The notes beneath the pieces were generated by a model. That model did not search any database. It was given only the letters and a program-made list of their open reading frames with translations, and was not told the origin of the DNA. From the NCBI GenBank assembly GCA_973895155.1, contig OZ316894.1, positions 21,299,867-21,363,866 of the forward strand: a stretch of DNA of 64,000 bases, read 5' to 3'. The position numbers and the translations under genes are program-made. Within the stretch, counting starts at the first letter, position 1, and the number at the start of each line of letters is the position of its first letter. The DNA comes from Marsupella aquatica. Lineage: Eukaryota; Plantae; Marchantiophyta. Of the stretch, positions 9,001 through 60,519 are shown piece after piece.

Positions 9001-9760
9001 AAACACCACAAGAAATACAAAAACAAGATGTATATTATAATGTCAACATAACAATTGGAGTTAAAATGGCTCATCCTTAGTCCCTTGTCTAATTTTTACT
9101 GTGCTATTCAAATAGTTTTCAAGGTTTAGTTATTTAAACCTGTTAGCGGGAACCCAGAAAATGTGAGTAGCAGGAGCTCTGAATCCTGAATTTTAAAAAA
9201 CCAAATTGTAATCAACTGAGGGACTCTACCAAGGTCACATGTGAAAGACAGTAGCACATCTAACTTGCCGCACTTAGGTGTTGTGCCAGCAATTGTATGA
9301 ATGCTACACATTTTTACAATGTGGATCCAAGAAATCAAGAAAGCAGGAAAACATAGTCAAAGAACAAATGAGAGAGAATAATGGTGGTGCAATGCATGTG
9401 GACATCCATGTGGTCCATAGTGGTCAATGTATCTAGACACTAAATTGTTCTCCACTACTATTGACTTTAGGATGCAGCATATGGCAACTCGTGAGGGTAT
9501 ACGCTATTTCCTCCACAACCACCTTTCCAGTATCAACCAGCACATAGAAACTGAACTTGTAGTATAGCTGATTTTTTTGAAGCTGCTAAAATGGTGAATG
9601 CAACTTTCAGTATTTTGTCTTATTCAAAATTCTTTTGTTATGAATTTTTATTTCAATGTGTCTTACCAAGGTGCATCCCTTGTATAGTTTAGATTTCCAA
9701 TTTATTCTGGCACCCCTCTAATTTTTTTAAATCTTTGCTATATTTTAAGATCATCCACCC

Positions 9761-10119
9761 TGTCATGCCGAGGGACAGTGCCTCTTATGCACATTGGCAT
9801 GTCCCTCGCCTGCCCGCTAGGTATGTAGTTAGGGCTAGTGTACTACCTGAGTTAGCGACATGTTCTTGTAGCAAGTCTGGGCCGTTCTTGAAGCAAATGT
9901 GCTTGTTAGTGTGACGTCAGGACTTTGCTTGCTTAGGGCATGTCTTTCTTTGTTGGTTTTCAGTTCTTCTTGAATCACTGTTGACAGAGCTCAGACAGTG
10001 CTCGTCGGTTCCGTACACGGGATTCACATAGTGATTCGTTAGATGCTCCCGGCCGATCTTGGCATCCTGCCGGTTTTCGATTCAATTTCAGTACAATTGT
10101 TTCTCTTACGCCTTTTATT
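9761..10119 (+). repeat. Terminal repeat A1 (359 bp; inferred downstream U3-R-U5 part of the LTR)
   Basis: Direct repeat of 18719-19077 (about 11 transitions by eye) and of 47696-48058. Confidence 0.95.
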
Positions 10120-10131
10120 CAAGAAGAACTG
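10117..10131 (+). promoter_or_regulatory. Primer-binding site complementary to the element's own LTR (Tf1-like self-priming PBS)
   Basis: ATTCAAGAAGAACTG at the end of A1 is the exact reverse complement of CAGTTCTTCTTGAAT at 9961-9975. No TGG-starting tRNA PBS is present. Confidence 0.75.
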
Positions 10132-11569
10132 TCGAGTTAGCGGTGAGGAGAAGAAGATTGCTCGTGGCGATTTCGACAATTTCTGGTGAAGCTGGTGCAA
10201 TTTCTATGGAAAAACGCTGAGCGATGGGGTGGAAGTTATGACTTTAAGTGTATACACTTAAGTATCAGTGTATACACTTAAGTCAAACAAGCCCCCCTCC
10301 CTCGTTTTCCTTTGTGTTTTTGCCCAGGCTTTTCTTTTCCGGCCGCAACCTGTTTCGCGACTTGCTGTTATCGATTGCTGCATCGACGCTGATTGCACAG
10401 GGCGCACCCGCGCTTGCATTTTTAACGACCTCTTTGGGGCCCTTTTTCGTTTACCGGCCACGACTGCCTCTGCCACCGCGCGCCCCTTTTCTTTCGTCCT
10501 TTTTCGCCTTGCCAAGCCTCGAAGTTCCTCCCTCCGTTTGTTTTCCTGCCTTTATCTCGCAGGCTGTGCGTACAGGGCATTGTGCCTCCCACTGCCAGCA
10601 TTTAATTAAGGAGAGGAGGGGGAGCAAGTACAAGCCGGGAGTCGAGGAGAAGGCACGGAGGCCTATGAGCATTAAAGCAGGGGGGAGGGGGGAGCCGAGG
10701 CTGGAACGCAAGGAGAGGAGGGGGACTGGCAGGAGCGAGTGTGCCAGGAGAGGGCACGAGGCCCTATGCTGAATTAAAGAGGGGAGGGGGAGTTCACATT
10801 CAATTCCCTTCTCGGGAGGCCCACAGTGCATTAATGAAGGGGGGGAGTTTACGTAGACTCCTTTCGAGAGTCCTCTTGCAGGGCACGAGGCCCTTTCACA
10901 ACATTAAAGAAAAGGGGGGGGGGGTACAATCGACTCCCTTCTCTCGAGAGTACTTTGGGAGCTCATACGGAGGGGGCGCGAAGCCCTATGCAGGGCTCGT
11001 GCCATTAAGAGGGCCCGGTTTCTTTTGCCCTCGCCTCGCCTTGGCTTTTCTCCTCTTTCCGGCCACCTGCGAGCCTGCCTCAACTATTTTCCCCTTTTTC
11101 GGCCTTTCTCGTTTTGTTTTTTTTTGCCGCGCCACGATTGACCTGCTGCCAGTTCCCGGGTCCACATATGGTCGATGTGTATACACTTACGGGGGCCCCT
11201 TTCACGTGTTGTAGGGCCCATTTCTTTCCCTTTGCTCTTGCTTTGTTCTCGACTACCTGCATAGGGCACCGTGCCGATCGGTCCTTCCTTTTTTGGGTCC
11301 ACATAGGGGCCCAACGTATACACTTTAAAGGGGCCCAATGTATACACTTAAGGGGGCCCCTATTCATGTTTTCAAGGGCCCATTCTTCCGGGATTTCTTT
11401 GTTGCCACCACATGTCATCTGCATAGACTTTGACAGTTTCTCAGCGCTTACACATTCTACACATTGCTGCCTTGCACCGTTTGTTTCCTTTGTGGGTTTT
11501 ATTTCTTAGCGTTGGGGCTGCCACTCCTTTTTCTTGTCAATTTCTTTCCCATTGGCACCCCGAGTGAGC

Positions 11570-13561
11570 ATGCAGCATGTCAGCCGACGAGCCAGGAGGT
11601 AGCAGCTCATCACCACCAACACCCCGGTACCACTTACGAAGTGATCCACGACCCTTGGTGCCAATTTCATTGGAGTCTCGGCAATTTTGACGACGTCCGC
11701 AGACAGCAGCAACACCCACACCACGCAATCCTTCTGCTCAATTTGGCGGTCGCTTCACCACTACCCCGAAGACTGCTATCACTTCCTTGCCATTTACCCC
11801 TTCTACATCAGTGGTTGTTCCAGATTCACCGACATACAACATGATGCTAGCCACTCATCTGGCCGCATTGAGCGCTTCAGCGGGCGGCCAGGCACTGTTT
11901 CTTTGCGTGAGTTCAAATCCACTTTCTACACTATCGTTTACAAATTGGAGTTGAAGTACGGCAGCAATTTCACAAATACTTTTGCATTTAAGCAGCTAGC
12001 CAGGTATGTGCACCATGAGGCTTTGGATGTGTATGAGCAGCACTCTCAACGGTTGCTTGTTGTCACACAATTGCCTAATCCTATCTATGCTAGTGCAATT
12101 GCAGTTGCCTCACAACTGGCATTACAGAATGCCATTGCAACCCATGCTGCTGCTCCTCCTACTTCCCCTCCTACTCTAGTTCCTACCACTGTGCCAGTTA
12201 CTCCCACTGTCTTGGCACAGGCTACATCAGGCATTTCTCCCACTATTGATTCTCCTGCCTTTGCTGATCCAGTGGCTGAGTTTTTCCAGGTTTTCGAATT
12301 GGAATTCCTAATCAAGAGTGCTGACAAAATCATGCAGTTGGCTACCTTTGTAAGGCAGCGCGATGAAACATTGAAGATGATGTATCGCCGGCTTCTCAAG
12401 CTGAAGGAGGACACCCAGAGCATCACTGACCTGGAGGCTGCGCATCGCTATCTTCGTGCATTGGAGGGCACACCAGCTCTCCATTCGCAAGTGTTGCAGC
12501 AAGTATTCTCAGAGTTTGGAGACAGCTATGCATTGCTCAATGTCTATGACACTGCTGAGAAACTTGAGTTGGCCCATGCACATTATGAGGCCAGTATTGC
12601 ACGTCCACCGCGATCCAGGTACCAGGCTGCTGCCCCTACATTGGCCACCCCTTCCCGTGTGGTACAATATGGTTCCAAGACCAAGCCAGCACATGCTGCT
12701 TTCATGCTGTCATCTTGCAACTACTGTGGTAACCCCAATCACAAGGCTAATGAATGTGATATTGTTGCTGAGGATCTGTCTTATGATTTTTGCGGGAAAG
12801 TGAGTCACTTGGAAGCAGTTTGTTTTGCCAAATTCCCACAGAGGAAGCAGCTACGATAACAGGCCACTCATCCTGCTCCTGTTTCCACTCCCCCACCAGC
12901 TAGGAGGGCTCCTATTGCATCAGCTACTCCTCCTTCCAATGGCAAAGCACCTGGTGCCAACAAATTGCCCAAGCAACAACAGAAGCAACCAGCTCAGAAG
13001 GAGGCTCACAATGCACAGGCAACTCAACTCCAGTCTCTGACTCATGAGGTTGAGTCCTTACGTGCCCAACTTGCCAATATCAAAGGCAAGTCAACTGCCT
13101 CTGCTGGTCCTTCTCAACCGGCTGGTCACGTGCAACCCATCCCTGGCTTAGGCACCACTGACAGTTCAGCACCTCTACCCCGCTCTTTCTATGGCTTGCC
13201 ATTTGATGCTCATATGGGTGAGTGTGTGTTGTCCTCTGCTACACAGCCTGGCCTTACGGCAGAATTTTCAGATTCATTCTGCCCTTCCTATTTTGCTTAC
13301 CAGCAGGCCAATGCTGCTTCCCGTACTGCTCCCACACGCCGCATTGTACAGGCTGATGGTCTTGCTGTTGGTCCTATGACTAGAGCCAGGGGAGCTCGGG
13401 CTGTCATGCCCCAATCCTTTCAGCCACTCACACTTGCTGAAGAGCGCACCTTGTTGACAAGGGGGGAGGGAGCTGCAGCTACATCCATTCCACCACCAGG
13501 TGCTGCTGACATTTCATAGGGAGTTGTTTCTCCTTAGCTGCTTGAGCATTTCACCTCCGGT
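11570..13561 (+). pseudogene. gag: Gag region of the retrotransposon polyprotein (capsid-like domain, CCHC zinc knuckles, Pro/Ala-rich linker) with in-frame stops
   Basis: ORFs 11687-12859, 12965-13519 and 13562-14917 share one frame, which also holds the ATG at 11570. Knuckles are CNYCGNPNHKANEC and (C>Y)DFCGKVSHLEAVC. Confidence 0.8.
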
Positions 13562-13959
13562 ATGGCACAAAGGATTCTTACAACTCCACTTTTCAGTTGC
13601 CATGATTTACAGCTGGATGCTAGAGCTATCATCAGAGCGCTAGAGGGCTCACTGCATTCTTCATCAGCCCCTGTGACACCAGTTTTGGAGGTCCAATCTC
13701 ATGTACATACTAGACCTTCTTCTTCTCCATTACATGCTTCCACTAGTTTGGCTATCCTAGTACCAATTTCCAGTGGTAGCGATGACAGTATTGCTGCAGA
13801 TTGTGTGACCAGAGCTACACTGGATTCTGGTCATACTGCTCCATCTTTCTTGACTATGTTGTTGAGTGGAAAGACTGTGGATACTAACTCCCTTCACAAG
13901 ATACCTCATCATCTGCCAAAAGTGGTGCCTAGTGACAGGACTTCAGTTTCCACCACCAT

Positions 13960-14340
13960 TGCCATTGTTGACAACAGGAATTCAATGGTCAAGTTGGAGG
14001 GTCACACTCCTCAGGTGGTCATGCTAGACACAGGCGCTCAACCAGTGATATTGGGCATTCAGTTTGCCAAGAAGATGGGACTGCTGACTGATCATTTACA
14101 GCAATCTAGGTGGCATATTCGGACTGCTAGTGGCACTGTGGAGGATGTGCTGGGTGAGAGTTCTACTTTACTCACTCTCACTTTTAATGGAGGTACAGAT
14201 CAGGAACTGCATTTCCCAGTCAGATGTTTGGTTACCAATGCCACTACGTATGATGTGCTCATTGGCCAGGAGGCTTTGTTCCCACCAGGTTTTACCATTG
14301 ACAATTGGCATGAGCATGCATACTACAGAGTTGATTGGCA
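13960..14340 (+). pseudogene. Retropepsin aspartic protease domain
   Basis: VMLDTGAQPVILG active site, IRTASG flap and YDVLIGQEAL motif in ORF 13562-14917. Boundaries are approximate. Confidence 0.9.
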
Positions 14341-14689
14341 TATTGATGGCTCACACTTGGGCTACATTCCACTTGATTTGCATGGTGCCCATACACCTAT
14401 GGCTCACCACTGTGTGTTGAAAGCAGTGCACACAACTACCTATGTCAACCACCCATTGCAGGATTGGATTGAGGAGGATGACGATGAGGTGGCTGCTGCA
14501 CATGCTGCTGCACGTATAGCAGCACTTTCCAGCAACGTGGATCATCAACCAGAGGTGGTACAACGGCTCCAAGCAGCCCATGGACCTTTGGTGGCTGCAT
14601 TGCGCAAGTTTGAAGACCTTGGGCAGCACAATGGACAGCCAATAGCCCCAATCTTGAGCGCACCAGTTACATGGACTCCTGCTCCGGAT

Positions 14690-15154
14690 GGCCTTACATT
14701 GCTTGAGCTTTTTGGTGGCATTTCTACAGGCCTGGAAGCTCTCCTACAGTCGGGCATGGTGGTGAAGCAATACATCTACGTGGACATTGATCCAGGTGCA
14801 AGGCAAGTGGCTGAATCCCGTCTGCTGGAATTTTTAGACCGATTTCCCCAACAGTTTCCACACAATGCATGGAAGTCTGCATTTTCTTTCTTCCCTCCAG
14901 ATATCCAGCTTGTCTAGCACCGACACTTAACCCTTCTTGGTTCCCTTGATTTGATCATAGCTGGTTGGGAATGCCAAGGGTCTTGGCCTGGTTTATCGAC
15001 ATTCTACCGGTACATGGGATGAACCTAGTCTTGAGGAGAGAGAACGGGCTATGGGCTTCCAATTTGGTACTACATGTCACACCAAATCACCAGGCTGGCC
15101 AGGAATGCTTTACTTGGCAGGGTAATGGATCTCAATGCTCTCACTTGGCTTTTG
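14690..15154 (+). pseudogene. DNMT3-like C5 cytosine methyltransferase domain inside Pol (stop, internal deletion, frameshift)
   Basis: Motif I LLELFGGISTG; motif II-like YIYVDID; motif IV DLIIAGWECQG (14948-14980, after TAG 14915-14917, same frame); motif IX EERERAMGF (from about 15033, shifted frame); motif X ITRLARNALLGRVMD (from 15086). Confidence 0.88.
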
Positions 15155-15499
15155 GTCACTTGCATCCTTTTTCAGATGTACATTCATTCAGCATCCTGAG
15201 TTCCAGCCCTACCACTCCATGGTGCTGTTACATGGCATCCAAACCAGGTGCACTTACCTCTATTCAACACTCACCGCTTCAGTCCAAGTGTTGGGGGGAG
15301 GAGGTCCCTTGTAATGTGGCTGACATTATTTTTGAGTTTCATGGTGTGGACCAACCTAGATCAGCAGGTACAACAGGCCTTGGAGAGGCCTCATCACCTT
15401 ATCAGCAGCATGCTAGCAGCTTGGACAGTGGAGAGGCTAGCACTTTTGGTTCTTCAAGCACGAGTACATCAGGTCTTATTCCTAGTGTTGCCAACTACA

Positions 15500-16920
15500 C
15501 ATTCATCATGGGCAACCACCTGAGTAAAAGACAGAAGGACTAGCTGTTGAATTTGCTCCTCAAGCATGAGAATGTGTTTGCTTTCTCTATGAAGGCGAGT
15601 ATGAAGGACTTGGGTAAGTGCAAGACTATGCAATTCTCCATTGAGTTGGCTGATGAAACACATATCTTCAGGCGGAGACACCGTTTGAGTAAGCATGAGT
15701 GGCAACTGGTGGATGAGAGGTGCCAAGAGCTCTATGAAGCTGGTCTTATTCAGCCATCTACATCAGATTTTGCAGCAGCTACAGTGATGCCAGCAAAGAA
15801 GGATTCCAGTGGATTGTGGACAAAGAAGCGCATGTGTGGGGACTACAGGCCATTGAACCTGGTCACACCCCAGGATAGGTACCCCATGCCGCGGCCAGAG
15901 GAGCTATTTGACAGCATTGGAGACTCAGACATCTTCACTCTTGTGGATCTAAGGCAAGGCTTCAACCAGATTTTGCTGCTTGCAAATTAAGGATCGCAAG
16001 AAAACAACTTTCCATGGTAGTAACCAACTATGGGAGTGGTTGGTGATGCCATTTGGCTTGAAGAATGCGCCCATATTCTTTCAAAGAGTCATGGACCAGG
16101 TTCTTCAAGGTGCTGAGTTTCTGAAATGCTACATTGATGATGTGTTGGTCCACAACAAAGGATTTGACCAGCATCTACTTGACCTTGAGGAGCTATTCAT
16201 GAGGCTTAAGAAGGTGAACCTGAAGATACACCCCAAGAAGTGTGAATTTGTTGTCAGATCAGTAGTATACCTTGGGCACCGCATTCTTCCAAATGGAACC
16301 ATGGCTCACTGGGCCAAAGTGGTATCCATCTTGGAAATGCCCACTCCTACTGATGTTCACACTCTTAGGAGCTTTATTGGGTTGTGCAATTACTACCGGA
16401 TCTACATCAAAGATTTCAGTACCATTGCACATCCATTGTACTCTTTGTTGAAAAAGAATGTGACTTGGACATGGAGTACAGATGCTGAGGGAGCATTTGC
16501 CACTTTGAAGGAGAAGCTCTCAGAATACCCGGTGCTTAGAAGACCTGATTTCAACAAGGTCTTTGTGCTACACACAGATTGGAGTGCCCTTGGGATTGGT
16601 GCCATTCTGGGCCAGCATGATGAGGAAGGTAAAGAGTATGTCATTGCCTATGCATCCAGGAGCAACAATCAGGTAGAGAGTCATTATTCTTCTTATGAGG
16701 GTGAATGCCTTGCTGTTGTGTGGGTTGTCATACATTACAGGCCCTACCTCTATGGGACCAGGTTTGTTCTCTACACCGACCACCAGCCCTTGAAGTGGTT
16801 GATGACCAATGACAAGCTTACGGCAAGCTTGCTCGTTGGGCACTCATACTCCAGGAGTATGATTTTGAGGTAATTCATAGGCCTGGTGTGACACATCAAA
16901 ATGCTGACACTATGTCTCGC
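15500..16920 (+). pseudogene. pol: Reverse transcriptase and RNase H domains (frameshifted near 15985 and 16820)
   Basis: RMCGDYRPLN, DLRQGFNQI, MPFGLKNAP and YIDD (16130-16141); RNase H motifs LHTDWS, EGECLAVVW and YTDHQPL. Confidence 0.95.
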
Positions 16921-17049
16921 AGCCCTTTGATTGCCTCTGATGATTCCTCAGATGCACGATAGGATTTCGACCAGGTTTCCATCCTGCCTACATTTCATGC
17001 ATCTACCTATCTTGCTTTGCTGCCATGCTACATTGTTGACCAACCTGTG

Positions 17050-18501
17050 GTGGACATATGGGAGGACAACAACACTCTGAGATTTTTGCAGCATGGGGAG
17101 TACCCCATACATGTTACTGTTGCCCAGAGAGACCGAATTCAACAAAGGTCCAAGCGTTACTTGTGGAAGGGAGATCATCTCGTGCGCTGCTTGCCAGACA
17201 GGGAAGTGGTGGTTCCACCCATTCATGAGAGGATTGACCTTATCCGTAAGGTACATTCTGAGCTTGGTCATTTTGGCGTTAAGAGGACTTACAGCCTCTT
17301 GGTCCCTCATTATCATTGGAGAGGCATGCATGGCCAAGTTCGAGATGTTATTGCCCGGTGTGAACAGTGTGATAGGGTGAGGACTTCTTTCACATCCCGA
17401 CAACCCACACTTCATCCACTCCCTATTCAGGGCATGTTTTATCGTTGGTCATGTGATTTGGCTGGAGAATTACCCCTCACGTCTCGGGGTAATCTCTACA
17501 TCATGATCATGATAGAGCATTTCTCCAAGTGGATAGAACTTGTGGCATTGCCAGATAAGACCTCCCGTAGCACCAGCCAGGCATTCCTACAACAAGTTCT
17601 CAGCCGCTTTGGAGCTTGTGCAGAATGTTTCACTGACTAGGGCTCAAAGTTTAGAGGAGAGTTCCAAGAGCTGCTTGATCAGGCCCTCATTGATCATTGT
17701 CAGACATCACGAGATCACCCGCAGGCAGATGGCTTGGCAGAGCGCATGGTTCAGACATGCAAGAAGGGCCTCCGAAAGATCTGCCTCACCAAAAACAAGG
17801 AGGATTGGGACCTGGCCTTACCCTACATTGCCATGGGGTATAGGATGTCCAGACATGCATCACTGTCTAACTTTTCTCCCTACTTCTTGTTGTTTGGTCG
17901 TCACCTAGTTCCACCTTCTGCTATTGCTGCTCACATGCTTCAGGTGGTGGACTTGGATTCAGCTGTGACTTGGTCTGATGTGATCTCTGCGAGGGCTGCC
18001 CTATTTAGGAGAGTTATGCCCATGGCCATGGAGAATTTGGCCATTACACAGCACAGGGACACACTGCGTTGTGCACACACACGAGGGGGCACTTTTCAGC
18101 TCAAGGTCAGGAAGTTTGATGTGGGAGATTTTGTGTACTTGCAGCGACAAGCTAACGACACCCTTGACACCTCTACCAGTCGTACGATTCACAGGGTTAA
18201 AGCTATTCGACCGTCTGGAGTGCTAGAGTTACAAGGGGCAGATGGGCGCACAATTGCTGACAATGCCAAGAATTGCGCCCCTTGTCATCTGCCTAACCTG
18301 GATCCCACCATTGTGACTTCTACTTGGATTCCACCTGTGGACTACCCTTGCAAAGTGTGTTTACGAATTGATGATGCTGACCAGATGCTGCTGTGTGACA
18401 ATTGCAATGGAGGGTACCATCTTTTCTGCCTTCGGCCTGAACTTACCCAGGTGCCAGAAGGGTTATGGTTTTGCCCTTCCTGTGCTCCACATGCTACCTG
18501 A
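17050..18501 (+). pseudogene. DDE integrase with C-terminal PHD finger (one in-frame stop at 17638-17640)
   Basis: HHCC motif (HSELGH...CEQC), catalytic WSCDL / TD*GS / GLAERMV. PHD CKVC...LLCDNC...YHLFC...WFCPSC at 18349-18483. Confidence 0.95.
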
Positions 18502-18533
18502 TTTTTCTTCAGCCCTCCTTTTGGCTGTGGTCT

Positions 18534-18540
18534 GGGGGGG
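18534..18540 (+). promoter_or_regulatory. Polypurine (G7) tract immediately 5' of repeat B1
   Basis: GGGGGGG directly before ATACAGAGG in both copies (also 51229-51235). Confidence 0.65.
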
Positions 18541-18716
18541 ATACAGAGGTATACACCTCCACTACGTACATACCACCTCATTTGCTTTTTCTTGGCACTT
18601 GTAAATGTGATGGGATTTTTTCTATGCATGTTGGTTGCTAGCAGCTTGCACATATGCCTTGTCGGTGACTTTTATGTTTTTGATACACTATGGCTACGAT
18701 ACTATATGTCACGACA
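18541..18716 (+). repeat. Terminal repeat B1 (176 bp; inferred upstream U3 part of the LTR)
   Basis: Direct repeat of 19078-19253 and 51236-51411. Confidence 0.95.
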
Positions 18717-18718
18717 GC

Positions 18719-19077
18719 TGTCATGCTGAGGGACAGTGCCTCTTATGCACATTGGCATGTCCCTCGCCTGCCCGCTAGGTATGTAGTTAGGGCTAGTGTA
18801 CTACCTGAGTTAGCGACATGTTCTTGTAGCAAGTCTGGGCCGTTCTTGAAGCAAATGTGTTTGTTAGTGTGACGCCAGGACTTTGCTTGCTTAGGGCATG
18901 TCTTTCTTTGTTGATTTTCAGTTCTTCTTGAATCGCTGTTGACAGAGCTCAGACAGTGCTCGTCGGTTCCGTACACAGGATTCACACAGTGATTCGTTAG
19001 ATGCTCCCGACCGATCTTGGCATCCTGCCGGTTTTTGATTCGATTTCAATACAATTGTTTCTCTTACGCCTTTTATT
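18719..19077 (+). repeat. Terminal repeat A2
   Basis: Copy of 9761-10119, separated from B1 by the dinucleotide GC. Confidence 0.95.
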
Positions 19078-19253
19078 ATACAGAGGTTTACACCTCCACT
19101 ACGTACATACCACCTCATTTGCTTTTTCTTGGCACTTGTAAATGTGATGGGACTTTTTCTATGCATGTTGGTTGCTAGCAGCTTGCACATATGCCTTGCC
19201 GGTGATTTGTATGTTTTCGATACACTATGGCTACGATACTATATGTCACGATA
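19078..19253 (+). repeat. Terminal repeat B2
   Basis: Copy of 18541-18716 (about 7 differences), fused directly to the end of A2 (TTTTATT|ATACAG). Confidence 0.95.
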
Positions 19254-20988
19254 ACCCTGGAACAAAGCTGGTTGAATTTCAAGCCCTTATTCTCATGAGT
19301 ACATAAGAAATGATCTAAATAATGTGCACACCTTATGTCTTTAAGTATTACTCATAGTTTTGTGTCCTAAATTTATGGTTTTAATTAGTTTGAGTGTCAA
19401 TACCTAAAGTAAGTACATAAGTATCTCTACTCATGTACATTATGTGTACATCCCAATACCATAAACTTAAAATTTTCTGTTCATTATTATTTTTCTTTAC
19501 ATGTGTATTTTTATTTTTGTACCTTATGTGCACAAGTTTCAATATCAGACTCTACTTATTCCTAGTCAATGTCTTGTTTATATTTTAATTAGAACATCTG
19601 TATATCCCTAAAAAACAAAAAATGATGCATGTTCCAGTATGAGCATGCTATATAGCTTCTTGTTCATTTTTGGAAAAGAAGAACACTTCCACATATTGGG
19701 GAATTTGTTTTGTGTTTCTGAAAGTGGGGAAACTTAGCCCCACAGCTTGATTCCCCTTTGAACCTCAGGTACAGCCAAATGCAGAGGGGACTCCAAAAGA
19801 CAAGCCAATGTATAGTGCACTGCGTTTCATATGTACCACCCGCTGGGGTCTCACTTCAAGGGAGATCCATATCAGGCCCTAAGTTTTTAGGTAATAAAAT
19901 ACCCCAAAATTTAAGTAAAAGAATTTTTGTACAAATGAATTCATGCAATATTTTCAAATTTGGTGTTAAAAACCCTCTCGATTTTGTAATTCTCAAACCC
20001 TGAATTAGAAAACAACTCTAATGTTTTTGAACATTTTTTTTTAGAATCTTCCACCGAATTCAATTGGAGAAAACAAAGGAAAAAGCCAAGGCCAACCAAA
20101 GAATCTTCCACCCCATTCAATCTTCCTTGATATGGTCTCCTGCCTTTCTGAACTTGCGGTTTCATTTTTAGTTCTTTGAGAGTGGGAAACTGAGTAGAGT
20201 AGCAGGTGAGATTGACCAAAGATTGTTTATGATTAACCTTCTAGGTGCTGATCGCTTAAGTTTCTATTTCTTGTTAGGTTTTGGAGAGGAAGGGAAACCT
20301 CAACTGATATCTTAGTTCTGCGAGGAATCCTAATCAAAATGGGCTTGTCCTCTTCATTTCAGATATATTTGCTGCGCCTGGCTTGCCATAAACAAACATT
20401 TAAAATGCAAGCTGTTTGCTTCGGCTGTCAAGATAGGTTGAGTGAAACAGTGAGTGATAAATCAGTTGAAGCCGGTTTAGGCTTGCTGGTTAAGTGAGGA
20501 TCAAGTTTGATTGGCATCATCAAGAAAAGCTCCTATCCGGATAAGATAGACCACAATATTCAAATGGGTAGTTGTGGCTAATGGGGGTCTGTGGGTAGGT
20601 AGTTTCTTCTAGGTAGAAAACTGGCTAAGGGAAGACAAAAACCTGGAGATTGTTTACTGACTTAATGGAAGACATTTCAGTGCGGTGTCATGTGGCAAAT
20701 TTAGGTCACTAATAAAACTGCAAAATCAACTCGTTAAACCGCTTCTGTCCATTAGTCAGTACTTAATGCTCTTAAGAAATTTAAAAAGTGTACTAAAAGT
20801 GACTATCTTGTCCTCCCATAACTTTGGAGATAGCGGTGGCTTAAGATTTCAATAAAGATCCCGATAAGTTAAGATTATCTTCCAACTGTGCCTGCATATG
20901 GCAGCCAATTAGCTCAATTAGCGTCCTTCTTCTTCGAGGTCGATGTCCGTGATGAGTTGCTGAAAAAAGCTATTCGCTACATCTGTTC

Positions 20989-21023: not shown

Positions 21024-22258
21024 GATGACAGGGGACAAGGTCAAGTGTTAAGACCTTCGATTAGTACTCGGACTTTATCATAGTAGGTATGTCTTATATA
21101 TCTTACTCTAGTTACTTTGTCCAACTACAGTAAGTCAGTGAGGCCCAAAGTCAGTTGGGTTGTCCCACATATAAATAGAGGGCACACGTTGAGATTTATT
21201 TTACCAGTTTCACAAGTCACAGCCTTCTGTCAAAGTGTTAAAGTCCTAATTTGTCGTGATGCAGCCTCCATCTTAAGCGAGAGAATAATAGTAACCACAA
21301 ATATCACCTGGTTGCCATCAATTTGTGGTCATAGTTGTGATGTTCGTTTAGTCAGTCTCAATGCAGAGTGGAAAAGAACCTCAATAGAAAGACTTTTGGA
21401 AAATTTTATTCCCCCACTGATTCTCAATTACTAGTGGCCAGGTCTCTCTGCTTCGTGCTTTTATTGTCACATACGAATTACGTTCGAGGCGAGAAAAGAA
21501 TTACTATTTTTAATGGCTGTCAGAATTATTGTTTTTATGATGTAAATTTCATATTCTGGGAAAACTAATGTTCTGTTCAAACATCTGGATATTGGTGAAA
21601 TGAAATTAATGTGAGTTTTTACCTCAAGTCTCCAGCTTTGGGATTTGAGTTTCATTCCAGGTTTGAGCATTAAACTGACCACGTTGTGGAATGTAATGAA
21701 CTCTTCACTATTCTCTCAAAATAGTAATTGATGCACTCGGTCGTCCACATTCAAGATTCAAGTATGATTAAGTGTAATATACAACAAAAAATTCTTTACT
21801 ATAACTAGCAATCAACTTACTCAGTACACCGAAGCCATAGACTGTGACAAAAATATTTAGATTATATTTGTGAGTAAAAGACGTCCATCCTTACTCACAA
21901 CTATAAATCAAATATAACCAGTCATGGGAGTCTGGTATGGGAAAACCTTCCTCTGCTGAAGCAACCATATTAGACCATACTTTTGAACTTTGAGACTCCC
22001 TATTAGTGGACCGTTAATGTTTAGAACATGAAGCTTTCCTAGTTTCATCTCGTCCCCTGTTTCTCATCCTCATGAGCATCTCCAACCCTTAAGGTTAGTC
22101 ATAATAAAACTGAGCAGTGACCAAACCGAGCAACTAGAATGCATATAGACATGCTCAACCCGTTCTATGGAATGGATTTCAAGCACTGGAGTATTTGGTA
22201 GGATTTGTTTTTTTGGACCACAACACATAGTATTGAGTTTTGATGGAGTTCTTGTTGG

Positions 22259-22827
22259 GTTTTAGAACCTCTAAAGTTTTCTGGATTGGAATCTACTGTG
22301 GTGTGAATGTTGTGTAAGTTACTGTGGTAATAGAAGGCGGTGTTAAACTGATCTCTTACGTGGAGTAACATATCCACTTATAAATTTAAATATATAATAC
22401 TGCTAAGGATAACAACTTGGGGCTAAGTGAGTAAGTTGTTTCAACTGTATACTGCTTTACACAGTAAAATGATAGCGGTGTTATGAAACTGGATATTTAT
22501 GTCACACTGGATATTTACTCTTACTCGATTGAGTTCTAGTTCGGTTTTAGAACCTCTAGGGTTTTCTAGATTGGAATCTACTCTGGTGTGAATGTTGTGT
22601 AAGTTACTGGGTTTTCAAGATGGTAATAGAAGGCGGTGTTAAACTGATCTCTTACGTGGAGTAACATTATCCACTTATAATAAATTTAAAGAAATAATAC
22701 TGCTAAGAGTACGAATTTGGGGCTAAGTTAGTAAGTTGTTTCAACTGTATACTACCTTTACACAGTAAACTGATAGCAGTGTTATCAGACTGGATATTTA
22801 TGTCAGACTGGATATTTCCTCTTACTC
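22259..22827. repeat. Diverged tandem duplication, about 285-bp unit x2
   Basis: GTTTTAGAACCTCTA...TTACTC occurs from about 22259 and again from about 22544. Confidence 0.85.
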
Positions 22828-37499: not shown

Positions 37500-39721
37500 C
37501 ATGAGGGTAATTAAAAATCTCGCCCAACACCGATATAACGGTGCAGCTCTCGCTGTCCATTCGAGCCGAGGACGTCATATTCCCCAGTCTCCAACGTCAT
37601 TCCCTGAAACAAGAACATTATTATTATTCTGAATCGGGTCCCCCCCTCCTCTTTTTAATAATTTTCGTCCCTGACAAGAATCTTCCCCTTGCAGAGCGAG
37701 AGGACCCGTACGGCACGCAGAAAGAGAATAAATCGATATCGGCATTTCGTAATCTCGCCCTACGGGAAATAATCCTCACCCGCCGATCCGCTCCGCATCG
37801 ACGGCCCTCCGCCCACCGAACGCTGCACAAAGGCGAAATTATCAAATACAGGGGAAATTGTGGCGAAATGAATCTTTCGTGACGTGGCAGGGGTCAGGGG
37901 TGACGGAATGACGGTATTCCAACAGCTGATCTCATCAGACGGCCAGGATCGGATCATGGGCTCTCGTGACGGGGGGGCCCCAGCCATCTTCGCCCATACG
38001 CCTCAAGGGGCTGTCCCTCGAGGGCAGCACTCTACCGGGCCGTTAATAAAAGGGCCGAGTCCTTCCTTTATCCCTGACTTCAGTGGTCGCACGCCCAGCA
38101 CCGTCCGCTCTCCCTGCTGCCCTTCCTTTCCTCACAGCCCCCCACTCTACTTGCGCCCTTCCGCGGGAGTGTGAGAGAGAGAGAGAGACCCGTGTAGACG
38201 GAGACCAAAGGCGACGAGAAGAGGAACAGAGGGAGAGAGGTGAGAGAGCGAGAAGAGCATATAATAGGCACACAAAGCGTTTTGGACTACGGTGTTACGT
38301 CGACGTTTCTTCGCGGCTTCGTGGTGCAATTGGTTGGGCCGGACACCTGGCTCGTGGCTCCTGGTGCGAAAGAGGAGACACCCACTCATCGACGAATAAG
38401 CAAGCGCAAGAGGAGGAGAGGAGCGGAGCAGAGAGGGAGAGGAGAGGAGAAGAGGGAAAGGCCTAGTCAGTCGTTGGTTCATTTATCATTTTCTCATTCA
38501 TTCGGTGTTGTGGCTGCGGTCTCCTGCTTCTGCTGCTGCTGCCACCACCGCGGCTTCTAGTTCGGCTTCGGGTTCGGCGCACGAAGGTGTTGTGGGAGTG
38601 GTGGGTTTGGGATTTCTATTACCCGCTGCTGCTGGGTGGATTGAATGCGGGTGAATGCGGCTGCTGCCGCTGCCTGGCTTCGACTCGAACTCGAAGTGTG
38701 ATTGAGTTTTGTTCCCCGTCAACCGGGTGGAGTTGATTCGGATGCGAAGATTTGCGGATGATTGCATTTTTGCACTGTGAAACTGCGGAAGTAGGGATTT
38801 CGTCGTTGTGTCGCTCGTCGGGAAGGGCACGGGAAGAGGAGTTGGTGCGCCATTTCCAGCGTCTTTGAATCTTTGACTTCTGTGCCCGCTCGGAGCTGCC
38901 CCGCTTGTCGTGGATGTTTGCGTTGGGCGGTGGCAGTGAGTTTTGCTCCAAGTGCCCAACCGCAACTTTTTTTAGCATTCGCTGAGTCCTGGTTTCCACC
39001 GTGGGTCGGTGTGCTGTGTCCGTGTTACTTGCCATTAGCACGCGCGGCACTAGCGGAGTGCACGGGTTGGGGCTGGTAGCGCGAACGAGCTGCGAAGAGT
39101 AGGAGCGAGTGCGGACCGGAATCAACTTGCGGGACGGCTTGTTTGAAGGGGAGAAGGTTCTAAGCAGTGTGTTTTGCTGCTCGATTGCTCGCTGAGTCTT
39201 CGTCAGGCCTTTCTTTCCCTGGATACTCAATCTGCGGCACGTGAAGTGCTTTGTGGTCACGTCGGCTGCGAGCTCTTGAAGCTCTGGTTCTTTCTATTCT
39301 CTCTGTTCTTCTCGGATTCCATCTCTGCCAATCGGCTGTTCGTATTTCTGTTAGTGTTGTAGTTCTCGATGGGCGTCAGGCATCATCGTCTCTCCTAGCA
39401 TTGATCATTTGTAGTAGTCGCGATATTAGTACAGTTTTGTAGTGGCCATTTTTTATGATCCTGGTCCCTTATTATTTACTCTCTGAAGTAGTCTCAAAGT
39501 TCTGATTTCCTGGCAAGCTACTGGAAAGTGCATGTTCTGGACACGATTTACGGCTTCGCCAGTGGCATTTGCAATCAGTTTCGTTGGGAAGATCCTATCA
39601 GATCAGGTGTCTGGAATTCGTCGCTGTCACGCAATACTGGTCAGAGGGTTCAGTTGGGATTAGAGTTCAGGATTGTTTCGAACGTAAGATCAGAAAAGTT
39701 CGACATAAACTGGATCCAAGG
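37500..39721 (+). promoter_or_regulatory. CpG-rich promoter and long 5' leader region of the S40 gene (GA repeats, ABRE-like ACGTGGC near 37882)
   Basis: GC/CpG-rich, with a GA microsatellite near 38172 and GA-rich leader, directly upstream of the CDS. TSS and introns were not determined. Confidence 0.4.
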
Positions 39722-40558
39722 ATGATGGCCAGAATTGGAAACGTTGGCCCCGAAGCATTCTCCCGAAGTGATCGCATCTCGAACGGATTAAGCACAGTGA
39801 TGCGCGACCACATGAGTTCTAGTCGGGTGGATATGCTATTGGGGCTGGCGTCGCCTCAGTCATCGTCACCTGCTTTTGATGTGATTGACTTGAATGAGGA
39901 GGACATCTGGGGCTCGGAAGAGAGCGCCAATTTTTCCAGCAATGTCACGACCAGTCCGGTGGCTGAGGTAAAGAAGTTTGAGATGAGTTTTGTTGGCGGC
40001 TCATCGAGCATTAGCAAAGAGGTTGTCGAGCCCGATCCTTTTAGATTCATCAATAACGGTAGAAGGTGGCGCAGCCGTGAAAAAGATACCGGGCTATCCA
40101 TGGCATACGGGGACGCCGGGCGAACCCGAGGGTTTCCAAGTCCTCTGAATCGAGCAGCTAATGTAGCCAATGGCACGTTCTCCCCCACCGCAAATGGGAA
40201 CAACGGGCGGACACCATCGCGGCTGATTCCGAATAGGGAAGCTTTGCATGCATCGTCTCCAAGTAGTAGGGTGCAGCATCAATCTGCTCCCGTAAATGTG
40301 CCCGACTGGTCGAAGATCCTAGGCGCAGAGAGAAAAGGCCCTTTCACTAAAGCTTTCGTCGATGACGATGTTGTACCTGAGAACGACGAAGATGAGGAGA
40401 GACTCCCTCCTCACGAGCTCATTGCTCGAGAGTATGCGCGGAGTCACATCACGACGTTCTCCATGTGCGACGGTGCTGGAGGGACTTTGAAAGGTAGAGA
40501 TCTGAGCCGTGTCCGCAACGCCGTGTTGAGGAAGACCGGCTTTCTGAACGATCAATGA
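39722..40558 (+). CDS. S40: Senescence regulator S40 / DUF584 family protein (single-exon CDS)
   Basis: DLNEEDIW motif, HQSAPVNVPDWSKILG, LPPHELIAREY and FSMCDGAGGTLKGRDLSRVRNAVLRKTGF. The first in-frame ATG is 39722; the ORF track start at 39569 is a TTG. Confidence 0.92.
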   Translation: MMARIGNVGPEAFSRSDRISNGLSTVMRDHMSSSRVDMLLGLASPQSSSPAFDVIDLNEEDIWGSEESANFSSNVTTSPVAEVKKFEMSFVGGSSSISKEVVEPDPFRFINNGRRWRSREKDTGLSMAYGDAGRTRGFPSPLNRAANVANGTFSPTANGNNGRTPSRLIPNREALHASSPSSRVQHQSAPVNVPDWSKILGAERKGPFTKAFVDDDVVPENDEDEERLPPHELIAREYARSHITTFSMCDGAGGTLKGRDLSRVRNAVLRKTGFLNDQ

Positions 40559-46019: not shown

Positions 46020-46330
46020 ATGAGAACAACCGGGTCAATTGGGTCCACATCTAAAATTTGCGGCTGACCCTTGTTCTCTCTCCTTTATTGGGTCTCCTAT
46101 AGTTGGGATCTTGTCTCTCACAAGTTTGAACAACTTGGTCAATTGGGTCCACATTTAAAATTTGTGGCTGACCCTTGTTCTCTCTCCTTTATTGGGTCTC
46201 CTATAGTTGGGATGTTGTCTCGCAAGTTTGAACAACTTGGTCAATTGGGTCCACATTTAAAATTTGTGGCTGACCCTTGTTTTCTCCCCTTTATTGGGGT
46301 CTCCTGGAGTTGGATCCTGTCTCATAACTT
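46020..46330. repeat. Tandem repeat, about 106-bp unit x3
   Basis: GAACAAC...GGTCAATTGGGTCCACAT...GGCTGACCCTTG occurs three times. Confidence 0.9.
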
Positions 46331-47695
46331 GGCGCTTTTATTCTTTTGGCGGTGTGATATAATAAACTGGATAGATCAGTACACTAGCCAATAAATCTAG
46401 GGGCTCCTTGGTGCCACCAAGTTATTAGTCATGAATGCTGAATGTCCTTGCTAGTTTTCAACTACTGTAGCCAGGGCTGTACTCTAGAGTTGAGGGACTT
46501 CTCTATTTTGGTAGGAAGTAGGAGAATAGAATCTTTTGGTCTGGCCTGGTAGGTGTTGGGAGGACGGCCTCAAGAGGGCCAGCAAGGCTTGAGGGGGGGT
46601 GCAAAATGATTACATCTCGGGTCATTTTTTACTCTTTCTAGGTTTTTGGGGGTTTGCATATGAGTTTCATGTTTGTCCTCTCTTGATCTCTTTTTGCTTT
46701 TTCTCCATTGTACTTTTTTTTGGTAATTTGGTCCTTCTCCTTTAACTGGAGTCACTTTAAAACTGGTCGCTGTCCTTTTGCCATTATGCTTTATTTGGCG
46801 TTTTCTTAGTCAATTGCTCCTTCTTCTTGTATTGGAGTCCCTTTCAATTGGTGGGTGTCCCGATGCATAGAGTGGCTACCAATAAAGCAACAAGACGTCC
46901 GCCAGAGGCCAACGAGGCCATTGGATGGGACTGACTGTCCTGTCCAGTTTAGAGGCATAAAAGGACAAACCAACGTACTCCGTGGCATAATAGGCCTGCC
47001 CTAGATTTGCAGCTTCTAGTTCAGAAGTATATATGAAAATAGGTACAAGGGTGGGGCTGTCCTGAGTTGCAGCCCATCTGGAATTGGATGGTGTGTAATT
47101 CTTAGGGTTTTTACTATGCAGGGTCAGTCGTTCATTTTGGTATTGTGCAGGCTCTTTTTGGAGCTCTGATTCGCAATGTGGGACATGATTTCCCTCTGGA
47201 ATTTCGCTAGAGGGATTAGAAATTGGCAATTGTGGAAAGCCAGTTGCTCATTTGAGAAAGAGAAAATTTGTATTTTTTGTGTGGGAATAAGCTCCGACTA
47301 AGTCTTAAAATTGATTGGAATCATGGACTGGCTCTGGAAAAGAATGTTGGGCGTTGTAGAATGGAGTTGGTTGGTAGGATGATTGAAGACTTTGGTCATC
47401 TTGGAGGATTATATGGCTTGCATGATAAGATGCTAATGATGACTTCTGATCAATAGTGGTTTTTTGATCTGCCTTGAATTTTTGGTTTCTTACACTCTTG
47501 CTCATCTTGATTATGCTGTGAGCTGAGTATGCTAGTTACCTGTAGTTAGCGGTCTTTACAAATGGATTATTCTCCTGTAGATTTTTGTTGGAGTTCAGTA
47601 GTTCAGATTTTTTATTTTTTTGGCTTGATCTCTTCCTAAACTCTGGATTGAGTTGGCCCTCAGATCCTGATCTTTGCCCATGGATTTCATGGAGC

Positions 47696-50600
47696 TGTCA
47701 TGCCGAGGGACAGTGCCTCTTGTGCACATCGGCATGTCCCTCGCATGCCCGCTAGTATATAGTTAGGGCTAGTGTACTACTTGAGTTAGTGTCATGTTCT
47801 TGTAGCGAGTCTGGGCCGTTCTTGAAGCAAAGGTGTGTGTTAGTGTGACGCCTGGACCCGGTCCTACTTAGGGCATGTTGTTCTTTGCCATTTTTCAGTT
47901 CTTCTTGAATCGCTGTGAGACAGAGTTTCTCAGAGGCTACTCGTCGGTTCCGTACACGGAATTCACACAGTGATTCGTTAGATGCTCCCGGCCGATCTTG
48001 GCATCTCGCCGGTTTTCGATTCGATTTCAGTACGTTTGTTTCTATCACGCCCTTTATTCAAGAAGAACTGCCGAGTGAAGGGAAGAAGATCAGAAACGAT
48101 GTGTTTCTCAATTGCTCGCGACGGTCAACACTTTCCGTCGACAGCAGTGCAATTTATTTGAAGAAAAATCTAGTGATGGAGTTAGAGTTAGATTTTTCTT
48201 TGTATACACATCACTTATGTGTATACACTTAAACTTGCGGCGTGTGGGAGAAATACGGGAGGCAGCACTGGCCTGCTGGGAAGCAAAATAGGAAGGGCAT
48301 AATGAATCTGAAAATTCTGCTGTAAGGCCAAGCTGTGTAGCAGAGGACAACACACACTCACCCATATGAGCATCAAATGGCAAGCCATAGAAAGAGCGGG
48401 GTAGAGGTGCTGAACTGTCATCTCTACCACTGGAAATCGGTACTGGGATAGCCAAACCAGTGGAAGCATGCAATGGAGAAGAAGAAGGTCCAGTATATAC
48501 ATGAGATTGGACCTCCAAAACCGGTGTCACAGGGGCTGATGAAGAATGCAGTGAGCCCTGTAGCGCTCTGATGATAGCTCTAGCATCCAGCTATAAATCA
48601 TGGCAACTGAAAAGTGGAGTGGTAAGAATCCTTTGTGCCATACCGGAGGTGAAATGCTCAAGCAGCTCAGGAAAAACAACTCCCTGTGAAATGTCAGCAG
48701 CACCTGGTGGTGGAATGGATGTAGCTGCAACTCCCTCCCCCCTCGCCAACAAGGTGCGCTCTTCAGCAAGTGTGAGTGGCTGAAAAGACTGGGGCATGAC
48801 AGCCCGAGCTCCCCTGGCTCTAGTCATAGGACCAGCAGCAAGACCATCAGCCTGTACAATGCGGCGAAGTCCACGAAGAACTTTGCCTGGTTCGTGGCGT
48901 AGAGGTTTACCAGCGCGGCAGTATTGGCTGCTGGTCCTATGACTAGAGCCAGGGGAGCTCGGGCTGTCATGCCCCAGTCTTTTCAGCCACTCACACTTGC
49001 TGAAGAGCGCACCTTGTTGGCGAGGGGGGAGGGAGCTGCAGCTACATCCATAAAACTTTGAGGAGTTTTATTGGGTTGTGCAATTACTACCGGATCTACA
49101 TCAAAGATTTCAGTACCATTGCACACCCATTGTATGCTTTGTTGAAAAAGAATGTGACTTGGACATGGAGTACAGATGCTGAGGTAGCATTTGCCACTTT
49201 GAAGGAGAAGCTCTCAGAATACCCGGTGCTGAGAAGACCTGATTTCAGCAAGGTCTTTGTGCTACACACAGATTGGAGTGCCCTTGGGATTGGTGCCATT
49301 CTGGGCCAGCATGATGAGGAAGGTAAAGAGTACGTCATTGCCTATGCAACCAGGAGCAACAATCAGGCAGAGAGTCATTATTCTTCTTATGAGGGTGAAT
49401 GCCTTGCTGTTGTGTGGGCTGTAATACATTACAGGCCCTACCTCTATGGGACCAGGTTTGTTCTCTACACCGACCACCAGCCCTTGAAGTGGTTGATGAC
49501 CAACGACAAGCTTACTGGCAAGCTTGCTCGTTGGGCACTCATACTCCAGGAGTATGATTTTGAGGTAATTCATAGGCCTGGTGTGACACATCAAAATGCT
49601 GACACTATGTCCCGTAGCCCTTTGATTGCCTCTGATGATTCCTCAGATGCATGGCAGGATTTTGACCAGGTTTCCATCCTGCCTACATTTCATGCATCTA
49701 CCTATCTTGCTTTGCTGCCATGCTACATCGTTGACCAACCTGTGGTGGACATATGGGAGGACAGCGACACTCTGAGATTTTTGCAGCATGGGGAGTACCC
49801 CATACATGTTACTGCAACCCAAAGAGACCGAATTCAGCAAAGGTCCAAGCGTTACTTGTGGAAGGGAGATCATCTCGTGCGCTACTTGCCAGACAGGGAA
49901 GTGGTGGTTCCACCCATTCATGAGAGGGTTGGCCTTATCCGTAAGGTACATTCTGAGCTTGGTCATTTTGGCGTTAAGAGGACTTACAGCCTCTTGGTCC
50001 CTCATTATCATTGGAGAGGCATGCATGGCCAGGTTCAAGATGTTATTGCCCGGTGTGAACAATGTGATAGGGTGAGGACTTCTTTCACATCTCGGCAACC
50101 CACACTTCATCCACTCCCTATTCAGGGCATGTTTTATTGCTGGTCATGTGATTTGGCTAGAGAATTACCCCTCACATCTCGGGGTAATCTCTACATCATG
50201 ATCATGATAGAGCATTTCTCCAAGTGGATAGAACTTGTGGCATTGCCGGATAAGACCTCCCGTAGCACCAGCCAGGCATTCCTACAACAAGTTCTCAGCC
50301 GCTTTGGAGCTTGTGCAGAATGTCTCACTGACCAGGGATCAGAGTTCAGAGGAGAGTTCCAACAGCTGCTTGATCAGGCCCTCATTGATCATCGCCGAAC
50401 GTCACGAGATCACCCACAAGCAGATGGCTTGGCAGAGCGCATGGTTCAGACATGCAAGAAGGGCCTCCGGAAGATCTGCCTCACCAAAAACAAGGAGGAT
50501 TGGGACCTGGCCTTACCCTACATTGCCATGGGATATAGGATGTCCAGACATGCATCACTGTCTAACTTTTCTCCCTACTTCTTGTTGTTTGGTCATCACC

Positions 50601-51411: not shown

Positions 51412-52299
51412 GAGCCTCCCTGATGTGGTTCAGGCTTGAACTTCTCCTGCCCTAATAGGGTGTCTGAATCTTCGTAGTCCGGGCTACCAACGGCAAAAAG
51501 ATAAGGCTGATACTACCACCAGGATGTGGCTTTCAGGCATGCATAACCAAGAGAAATTCGAGAGGGATTGTAGCCAGTTGGCCTGCCATTAGCAAAAAAG
51601 CCCAGGCAAAAAAGTGTGGTCGCCAACTCGGTCTCCCGCGCACTTTAAGTCTGCGTCCAGCCCAGCAAACTCTCCGCCCAAGGAAAAGCCTGAGTCTTGT
51701 AAGTTTGAGACGCCCTAATGCAAGATACCTCTTAGGTTAAATCTGGCCCACTAGTTTCGGCTTGGGAAAATATAACGGCCCTCCCTCTGTTCAATTCTTG
51801 TAAAGACCACCTCCCCTCTCCCCGCCCCCCCCCCAACAACAAAATAAACTTTATAGCTCAGGTACTGTAGAGTAAGGGCAGACAGCAGAGGCCCCCGGAG
51901 CAAAGGACACTGTAAATTGGGCAGGACAATTCTGGGCAGGTAATTGTAGGTCAGAGAGAGGGTCAGAGAGAAGATTTTTTTTGTCAGCGATAAAGGACAA
52001 AAACTTTCGGGCCAAGTCACAGGCCTCGAAAACCGGCCAATGATTCGGCCCTACAGTATATGATTATGCCACTGCCCGGCCATCCCGACTTTGTAACTGT
52101 ACCGCCCATCTCTGTCGCTTATCCCCTAAACTGACGGCCAGTATTGAAAGATTCTCCCAACGAAAATCTCTCTCGTCCGGATGCGGATCGTTGCGCAAAA
52201 CAAATCTTTCCGGCTGCCCGGGTGGCCCACCACATCTGGGCCTGCCCCTCCCTGCCCGCCAACGTGCGAGGAGTTTATGTGGTCCCTGTTACTTCTTTG

Positions 52300-60259: not shown

Positions 60260-60490
60260 AAGACAAACTATATATAATAATGCCAAAGTACAAAACTGCT
60301 AAACCCTGAACAAAGAAGACTAAAACTATATATAATAATGCCAAAGTATAAAAATGGGAAACCCTGAACAAAGAAGACTACAACTCTATATAATATAATG
60401 CCAAAGTACAAAAATGGGAAACCCTGAACAAAAAAGACTAAAACTATAAACAATAATGCCAAAGTACAGAAATGTGAAACCCTGAGACAG
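60260..60490. repeat. Minisatellite, about 59-bp unit x4
   Basis: ATAATGCCAAAGTACAAAA...AAACCCTGAACAAAGAAGACTA repeats. Confidence 0.85.
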
Positions 60491-60519
60491 GTCCCAAAGG
60501 AAAAGCAACCCAATAAAGG

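Follow-up and report, generated by a model that had tools for sequence, protein, structure and literature searches.

How does a Ty3/gypsy element that encodes a DDE integrase come to be bounded by split direct repeats, with ends that are not the tips expected from reverse transcription? The question is raised by an element at positions 9761–19253 of a 64,000 nucleotide (nt) stretch of the Marsupella aquatica genome (GCA_973895155.1, contig OZ316894.1, positions 21,299,867–21,363,866), and the whole of this stretch is termed the window. The element, copy 1, has two repeated parts, A and B. Its order was originally predicted to be A1-internal-B1-GC-A2-B2 within a single 4-bp target site duplication (TSD), and this is found to be so, as ACCC brackets the whole of 9761–19253. 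Judged by sequence comparison, the layout is real, is family-wide and is mechanistically unusual. The explanation that we consider rather probable is that this element inserts from the middle of its long terminal repeat (LTR): the DDE integrase likely cuts an internal palindrome, CACGACA-nn-TGTCATG, and the tips of the complementary DNA (cDNA) are likely joined to one another. The features of copy 1 that bear on this are:

9757–9760, + strand: left TSD of copy 1, ACCC, from sequence comparison with the right TSD.
9761–10119, + strand: repeat A1, 96.9% identical to A2; it starts with TGTCATG, the integrated left end, and its right end is the predicted U5 tip of the cDNA.
9961–9975, + strand: predicted transcript 5′ end and self-primer, inside A1, complementary to 10117–10131.
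10120–10131, + strand: self-primer binding site, directly after A1.
18534–18540, + strand: polypurine tract (PPT) of seven G, immediately 5′ of B1; relatives have a PPT at the same place.
18541–18716, + strand: repeat B1, ending in CACGACA; its left end is the predicted U3 tip of the cDNA.
18710–18725, + strand: putative internal attachment palindrome CACGACA-GC-TGTCATG, uncut copy; its halves equal both integrated ends.
18717–18718, + strand: spacer GC between B1 and A2.
18719–19077, + strand: repeat A2, from repeat comparison with A1.
19075–19080, + strand: A2/B2 joint, ATT/ATA, the presumed join of two cDNA tips.
19078–19253, + strand: repeat B2, ending in CACGATA, the integrated right end.
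19254–19257, + strand: right TSD of copy 1, ACCC.

A1 and A2 differ at 11 of 359 sites (3.1%, all transitions) and B1 and B2 at 7 of 176 (4.0%), values that agree with the approximately 3% and 4% given originally. The B2 terminus, CACGATA, is one transition away from the B1 terminus, CACGACA. The sequence B+GC+A starts with ATA and finishes with ATT, also as first described, and the placing of the integrated ends at the internal B/A boundary holds, since the palindrome halves are the same as the inserted ends. Copy 1 is dead; its reading frames contain several stops and frameshifts.

The original prediction had a primer binding site (PBS) following A and a PPT preceding B. Both positions are correct, however the nature of the first has to be revised. 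A tRNA-type primer site after A1 was considered and rejected, as the sequence is the complement of A itself, i.e. a self-primer: nucleotides 10117–10131 pair over 15 nt with 9961–9975 inside A. When the RNA is folded from position 9961, the minimum free energy structure closes the self-primer stem (z = −2.63; 4 of 200 shuffled sequences are equally stable). The pattern of the self-primer site is found in 17 of 21 related 5′ A copies, the other four being variants missed by the pattern. The stem partner is at A position 162–186 with 13–15 of 15 pairs in 15 of the 17 scored relatives, and in 13 of the 17 at most 5 of 200 shuffled sequences pair as well. The partner in relatives is located approximately 25–30 nt downstream of a TATAAAA-like box. 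Two compensatory changes distinguish the stem of the relatives from that of the window, and a locus belonging to a third sequence family (L100) displays the same self-primer stem with a different sequence. Because the self-primer follows A and the PPT precedes B, reverse transcription should give LTRs of the form B+A, which supports the LTR as originally defined.

Relatives were collected by a metagenome scan, which matched at least 600 stretches with 518 relatives among the matches listed; the best 80 loci were used. The A and B sequences of the window have no blastn match in these 80 loci, and repeat profiles were therefore derived from 10 and 9 of the loci and then run across all 80. A B-terminated right end with flank is present in 66 loci, which collapse to 57 independent sites. 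The 14 loci set aside comprise nine that lack a repeat downstream or run into a contig end, three cut inside B, and two ending in B-A, one of which is at a contig end and the other (L046) is rearranged. L046, where B-A is followed by other sequence, was examined as a possible conventional end and rejected, since the sequence that follows is leader of the same family in inverted orientation, which points to a rearrangement.

The 57 independent right ends are of two types, B-nn-A-B (25 sites) and B alone (32 sites). All 21 sites with both ends begin at A, 11 of them with the structure A...B-A-B and 10 with A...B. Eleven of the 21 have a perfect 4-bp TSD, seven have one mismatch and three fail, while a control of 420 cross pairs gave no perfect and 28 one-mismatch TSDs. 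The pattern thus extends across the family, and 18 of the 21 two-ended sites have a TSD with at most one mismatch. Conventional identical LTRs at both ends were not seen: no BA-internal-BA copy is present among the 80 loci, and with duplicates kept, 0 of 60 A copies are in a B/A/PBS context and 0 of 106 B copies are in a flank/B/A context. Of the layouts that had been foreseen, A-internal-B-A-B is found, but the mirror layout A-B-A-internal-B, which was likewise expected, is never found (0 vs 11 A-internal-B-A-B; two-sided binomial p = 0.001). There are two solo A-B units with a 4-bp TSD, L043:6131–6611 and L077:6060–6526; one TSD is perfect and one is mismatched.

A scan of genome contigs produced eight loci. 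Six of these are short weak integrase-core matches and were not used; the two true relatives, L100 and L101, are young, nearly intact members of the clade that are filed under a cyanobacterial assembly, and eukaryotic contamination of that assembly is the likely source. L101 is a distant relative (54% protein identity) that displays PPT-B-GC-A-B; its B copies are identical and it has the same palindrome. Protein scans of viral contigs found no relatives. A junction-pattern scan of the viral contigs gave 19 loci, none with a pol match, and these were taken as chance.

The two joints within the B-nn-A-B structure have different properties. The B/A spacer is 2 nt in all 25 sites (AC in 10, GC in five, GT in four, AT in three, and three others). 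The A/B joint falls into classes of 11, 5, 2 and 7 sites that differ by gained or missing bases; the classes were sorted by eye and the identity of the blunt class is uncertain by 1 nt. On a tree built from 1400 bases of integrase DNA, the joint class is unclustered, with 11 changes compared with a shuffled mean of 12.2 (502/2000), and the layout is also unclustered (18 changes vs 18.9), while a control marker in B does cluster (4 changes vs 11.0; 0/2000). At one site, L053, a short purine run is followed by a B2 that takes in the PPT and starts 137 nt further upstream than a normal B, as expected if this B2 were the left tip of a mis-primed cDNA. On average B2 resembles the B1 of its own site more than those of other sites (0/10000 permutations), and A2 is nearest to its own A1 in 8 of 11 sites. 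Since the joint is ragged, is not inherited along the tree and in one case carries the PPT, it appears to be an end-joining scar. That the A/B joint represents joined cDNA tips is thus supported, however the exactness originally ascribed to it fails across the family, where the joint varies in 14 of 25 sites. Together these properties fit a B2 that is the left tip of the cDNA, joined to the right tip anew in each cycle, and outer ends that are cut at the motif. In L021, L038, L056 and L069, B2 stops at the inner GTCACGACA copy and B1 retains both copies; this fits cleavage at the motif.

Where two GTCACGACA copies lie 15 bp apart, the right end is at the inner one in seven of the 57 sites. In addition to the four B-A-B sites just named, these are L061, L062 and L066, which end in B only.

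The window contains a second independent copy of the element, which was missed in the original prediction and has the A-internal-B structure:

47696–51411, + strand: copy 2, A-internal-B, with the same TGTCATG...CACGACA ends.
47696–48058, + strand: A of copy 2.
48059–48070, + strand: self-primer site of copy 2.
49004–51196, + strand: open reading frame (ORF) of copy 2 encoding RNase H, integrase and PHD finger.
51229–51235, + strand: G7 tract of copy 2.
51236–51411, + strand: B of copy 2.
47692–47695 and 51412–51415: TSD of copy 2, GAGC.

A large stretch has been deleted from the interior of copy 2, and the piece at 48236–48866 is inverted. Identity to copy 1 is approximately 87% in A, 63% in the leader, 96% in the interior and 93%–95% in B. 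Copy 2 thus looks chimeric, possibly by a template switch between subfamilies. Its integrase has the PF17921 and PF00665 domains and the residues D366, D426 and E461; the second D is separated from E by 34 residues.

The anatomy of the element suggests the following sequence of events. Transcription would start inside A1 and the 5′ end of the RNA would prime itself just after A; plus-strand synthesis from the G tract would then produce a cDNA that should have the structure B-nn-A-interior-B-nn-A. As seen in the pattern of insertions, the integrated left end is always the A that adjoins the primer site. The right end is either the B that adjoins the PPT, which gives A-internal-B, or the left-LTR B joined on behind A2, which gives A-internal-B-A-B. 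A-internal-B has no 3′ R and would therefore be a dead end; A-internal-B-A-B would be replication-competent. Cleavage is proposed to be a 2-nt staggered cut after CA on both strands, which would leave CA-3′OH ends as in ordinary 3′ processing, and strand transfer would then give the 4-bp TSD. The weakest step is the last, in which the joined molecule would be topologically a 2-LTR circle that is opened only at the left site. On the simplest reading the left end is always taken from the LTR beside the primer site, so that cutting and joining would occur while the two LTRs still differ physically, and they are probably tied to the closing stages of reverse transcription, e.g. a final strand displacement with an end-to-end jump of the plus strand. 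An ordered opening of the joined molecule is likely because the mirror product never appears. The A-interior-B form would originate from one half of each LTR, from a 1-LTR circle or from a later B1 × B2 deletion. In its most general form the proposal is that in a green-lineage clade of Ty3/gypsy elements, which ranges from algae to bryophytes, the integrase attachment site has shifted to mid-LTR, and that every replication-competent insertion has to go through a circle-like cDNA with joined ends, opened in a set order, as its ordinary life cycle; we regard this as having a little better than an even chance of being correct.

A number of observations weigh against this explanation. The cause proposed for the left-only asymmetry is a guess, and selective loss of the mirror product by A × A deletion, or assembly effects, may be involved. 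A-internal-B could be produced by B1 × B2 deletion, and terminal branch lengths do not discriminate (p = 0.46, L050 left out). All of the evidence comes from old insertions, with A1 and A2 approximately 12% diverged in relatives. Three of the 21 two-ended sites have no TSD (L005, L014 and L057). The inner motif was chosen manually as the end of L021, and L066 has an ill-defined start. The family of the window has no clear TATA box ahead of the self-primer. In only 8 of 24 sites does B2 have its own B1 as the closest match (L030 excluded). At the 11 sites with both pairs, A-pair and B-pair divergence are uncorrelated (Spearman 0.34, p = 0.31) and the means differ, 11.9% for A and 9.4% for B (Wilcoxon p = 0.04). 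The lack of clustering on the integrase tree has limited power because the tree is star-like near its tips. Lastly, the L100 contig displays B-GC-A-PBS; it is circularly permuted, with a 127-nt terminal overlap, therefore it is not readable as an insertion and is no evidence either way.

Among other explanations, the one that survives best, although it is unlikely, has no circle before insertion. Internal cuts would be made on linear cDNA, the left-site halves would be inserted, and the host would join the leftover tips in the chromosome, with A-internal-B consisting of one half per LTR. This would give the same final sequence, a ragged joint and abundant A-internal-B (32 of 57), and needs no circular DNA. 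However each productive insertion would leave a chromosome break to be repaired, yet most joints change by a few bases at most, and the left-only choice is likewise unexplained.

Also unlikely, and next in order, is the version put forward originally, where host end joining gives a closed 2-LTR circle and the integrase opens either of two identical internal sites. The ragged A/B joints and the carry-over of the PPT do look like 2-LTR circle junctions, and two papers report that retroviral integrases open such circles (PMC1180852, PMC4372172). But two identical sites in identical contexts of 470–540 bp predict equal numbers of the two mirror products, whereas the counts are 0 and 11, and none of the 60 A copies lies between B and the primer site. 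Plain 2-LTR circle integration is thus not borne out, and would require a selective erasure of the mirror product, for example by A × A deletion.

A reading in which A+B, with its TG...CA termini, would be the true LTR, and in which the A/B joint and B2 would be passed on by RNA that reads through B2, as an old rearrangement under propagation, is improbable and largely refuted. A2+B2 does resemble an ordinary TG...CA LTR, and the solo A-B units in L043 and L077 have TSDs, but the primer site is after A and the PPT is before B in three sequence families, the joint classes are scattered on the tree, and B2 tracks its own B1, including the 137-nt PPT-bearing extension in L053.

Movement by a tyrosine recombinase as in PAT, Ngaro and TOC1, possibly supplied in trans, has very little chance of being correct. 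It would account for an identical A1-B1-A2-B2 layout, as passages of PMC4157794 describe it, but no tyrosine recombinase match is found in the 46 window ORFs of at least 70 aa or in the 25 ORFs of L007; copy 2 has a DDE integrase with all three of the residues given above, and TG...CA ends with 4-bp TSDs fit an integrase. An assembly artefact or a one-off local duplication is very unlikely and can be dismissed: copy 1 is known from the assembly alone, but its repeats are 3%–4% diverged with one TSD around the whole, and since 25 independent sites in other assemblies and also L101 share the layout, this explanation is refuted at the family level.

The interior of copy 1 has the following features:

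10132–11570, + strand: long leader with short internal repeats and no Pfam match in any frame.
11645–13519, + strand: gag region, broken; the zinc-knuckle match is weak and below cut-off.
13988–14278, + strand: aspartic protease (PF13975, E-value = 2.9e-7).
14642–15172, + strand: remnant of a C5 cytosine methylase (Dnmt3-like), from tblastn of P0082 residues 35–147 (42%, E-value = 1e-21) and 306–371.
15478–16831, + strand: reverse transcriptase and RNase H, frameshifted, from protein domain matches.
16822–18501, + strand: DDE integrase (H2C2, rve), stop-interrupted, from domain matches.
18349–18483, + strand: C-terminal PHD finger of the integrase (E-value = 3.4e-12).

The pol order, protease-reverse transcriptase-RNase H-integrase, is that of Ty3/gypsy elements (Metaviridae), and the matches to PF17921 and PF00665 confirm that the split-repeat element encodes a DDE integrase. 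The methylase remnant is located between the protease and the reverse transcriptase and has an internal deletion of approximately 160 residues in copy 1; a C5 methylase within the Gypsy pol is also found in 19 of 21 complete related sites and in L100. There is no match to a chromodomain at the C-terminus of the integrase, and the PHD finger occupies that position. The nearest named homologues are Calypogeia fissa (liverwort) proteins, with 79%–80% identity. Homologues include proteins of Klebsormidium nitens, Closterium, liverworts and chlorophytes. In a quick tree the window sequence groups with the C. fissa proteins (SH-aLRT, an approximate likelihood ratio test, 100), and the larger group of window, K. 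nitens, Closterium and liverwort proteins is weakly supported (SH-aLRT 87).

The leader of copy 1 displays G-rich short direct repeats together with repeated TATACACTT motifs at 10604–11384. Elsewhere in the window there is a host gene of the senescence regulator family at 39506–40558 on the + strand (PF04520, E-value = 2.7e-38), and by this gene the host is a land plant. Unrelated tandem or dispersed repeats are found at 22242–22827, 46024–46324, 52428–52684, 58065–59255 and 60252–61600. Three of these five tracts have a period near 104 bp, and in 52428–52684 both 121 bp copies are 100% identical.

LTR circles of integrase-type retroelements are generally regarded as dead ends. The present family as a whole appears to depend on integration from an internal junction, and would make a disputed question testable in a natural system: the cut site would be a 16-bp palindrome, and the A/B joint should be new in every daughter. 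The family also offers a route to split direct repeats without a recombinase, and it suggests that an abundant bryophyte and algal clade of elements, equipped with a cytosine methylase of its own, is wrongly annotated by LTR-finding programs. No published account of the mechanism was found in the literature searched, whose coverage does not extend to most subscription journals, theses and Repbase reports. Relative to that literature the self-primer, the internal palindrome, the renewed ragged joint, the abundance of A-interior-B and the left-only asymmetry appear to be new.

The layout itself is not new, contrary to the original prediction. In KnitGypsy-Dnmt3 of K. nitens (de Mendoza et al. 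2018, PMC5890265) one sentence, in the legend of Fig. 4c, gives DIRS-type repeats with Gypsy domains, and Fig. 1e of the same paper defines the DIRS-type arrangement as A-coding-B-A-B. The window element is thus like KnitGypsy-Dnmt3 in having a Gypsy pol with a Dnmt3-like methylase and A-coding-B-A-B repeats. Beyond that sentence on repeats, passages of the paper and three supplementary files contain no mechanism, and the passages make no mention of a primer, PPT, TSD, attachment site, A-internal-B form or PHD finger. Three K. nitens proteins are similar to the copy 2 ORF (P0039 and P0056, 50%–56%; P0078, 38%) but need not be KnitGypsy-Dnmt3 itself. Passages of a bioRxiv paper (10.64898/2026.05.21.726589) and of PMC6317226 contain nothing on a split layout.

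By its proteins the element is a gypsy element. It resembles Ty3/gypsy elements, including the self-primed Tf1, Tj1 and Tcn1, in its gag-protease-reverse transcriptase-RNase H-integrase order, PPT, self-priming, TG...CA ends and 4-bp TSD (passages of PMC4600332 and PMC6317226), and the primer anatomy in the window is that of Tf1-type self-priming as described in part of PMC4600332. Unlike the Tf1/sushi/Tcn1 group, it has PHD and methylase domains and no chromodomain match. Unlike canonical Ty3/gypsy elements, its integrated ends are not the tips defined by reverse transcription and its interior is not flanked by two complete LTRs; the 5′ copy is without B and the 3′ end has an extra B, and therefore it is not gypsy by LTR layout. 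The REXdb survey, according to passages of PMC6317226, used LTR-FINDER with paired 5′ and 3′ LTRs. Searches of this kind may miss or mis-trim such elements.

The PHD finger is shared with the Chlamydomonas Gypsy element Gypsy-7a_cRei, the legend for which mentions "LTR subparts" (passages of PMC9940879). Six chlorophyte PHD homologues (P0066, P0122, P0139, P0172, P0180 and P0193) align in separate pieces, which suggests a different domain order or insertions. In layout, A1-internal-B1-A2-B2, the element is like PAT, TOC1, Ngaro and VIPER, and in passages of PMC4157794 split direct repeats are otherwise a property of such tyrosine-recombinase elements. These encode a tyrosine recombinase, whereas the window element encodes a DDE integrase and a protease and no recombinase.

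In its proposed use of an internal palindrome to give two processed ends, the element is like the foamy virus and HIV-1 integrases acting on 2-LTR circle junctions, and the use of an internal junction as an integrase substrate is an old dispute (PMC1180852 and PMC4372172). In those viruses, however, it is the joining of the cDNA tips that forms the palindrome, the cutting of which restores the linear form as a side route. In the window element the palindrome is fixed at mid-LTR, and the tip joint is separate and ragged. The copy-out/paste-in insertion sequences (ISCth4, IS256, IS911 and IS30) similarly have a DDE enzyme and two abutted ends with a short spacer. These are bacterial DNA elements in which the junction is newly made from flanking DNA (passages of PMC7780238), whereas the junction of the window element is fixed in the LTR. 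If the proposed mechanism is true, the element would amount to a retroelement counterpart of paste-in from a circle junction, used as the standard life cycle and not as a side route.

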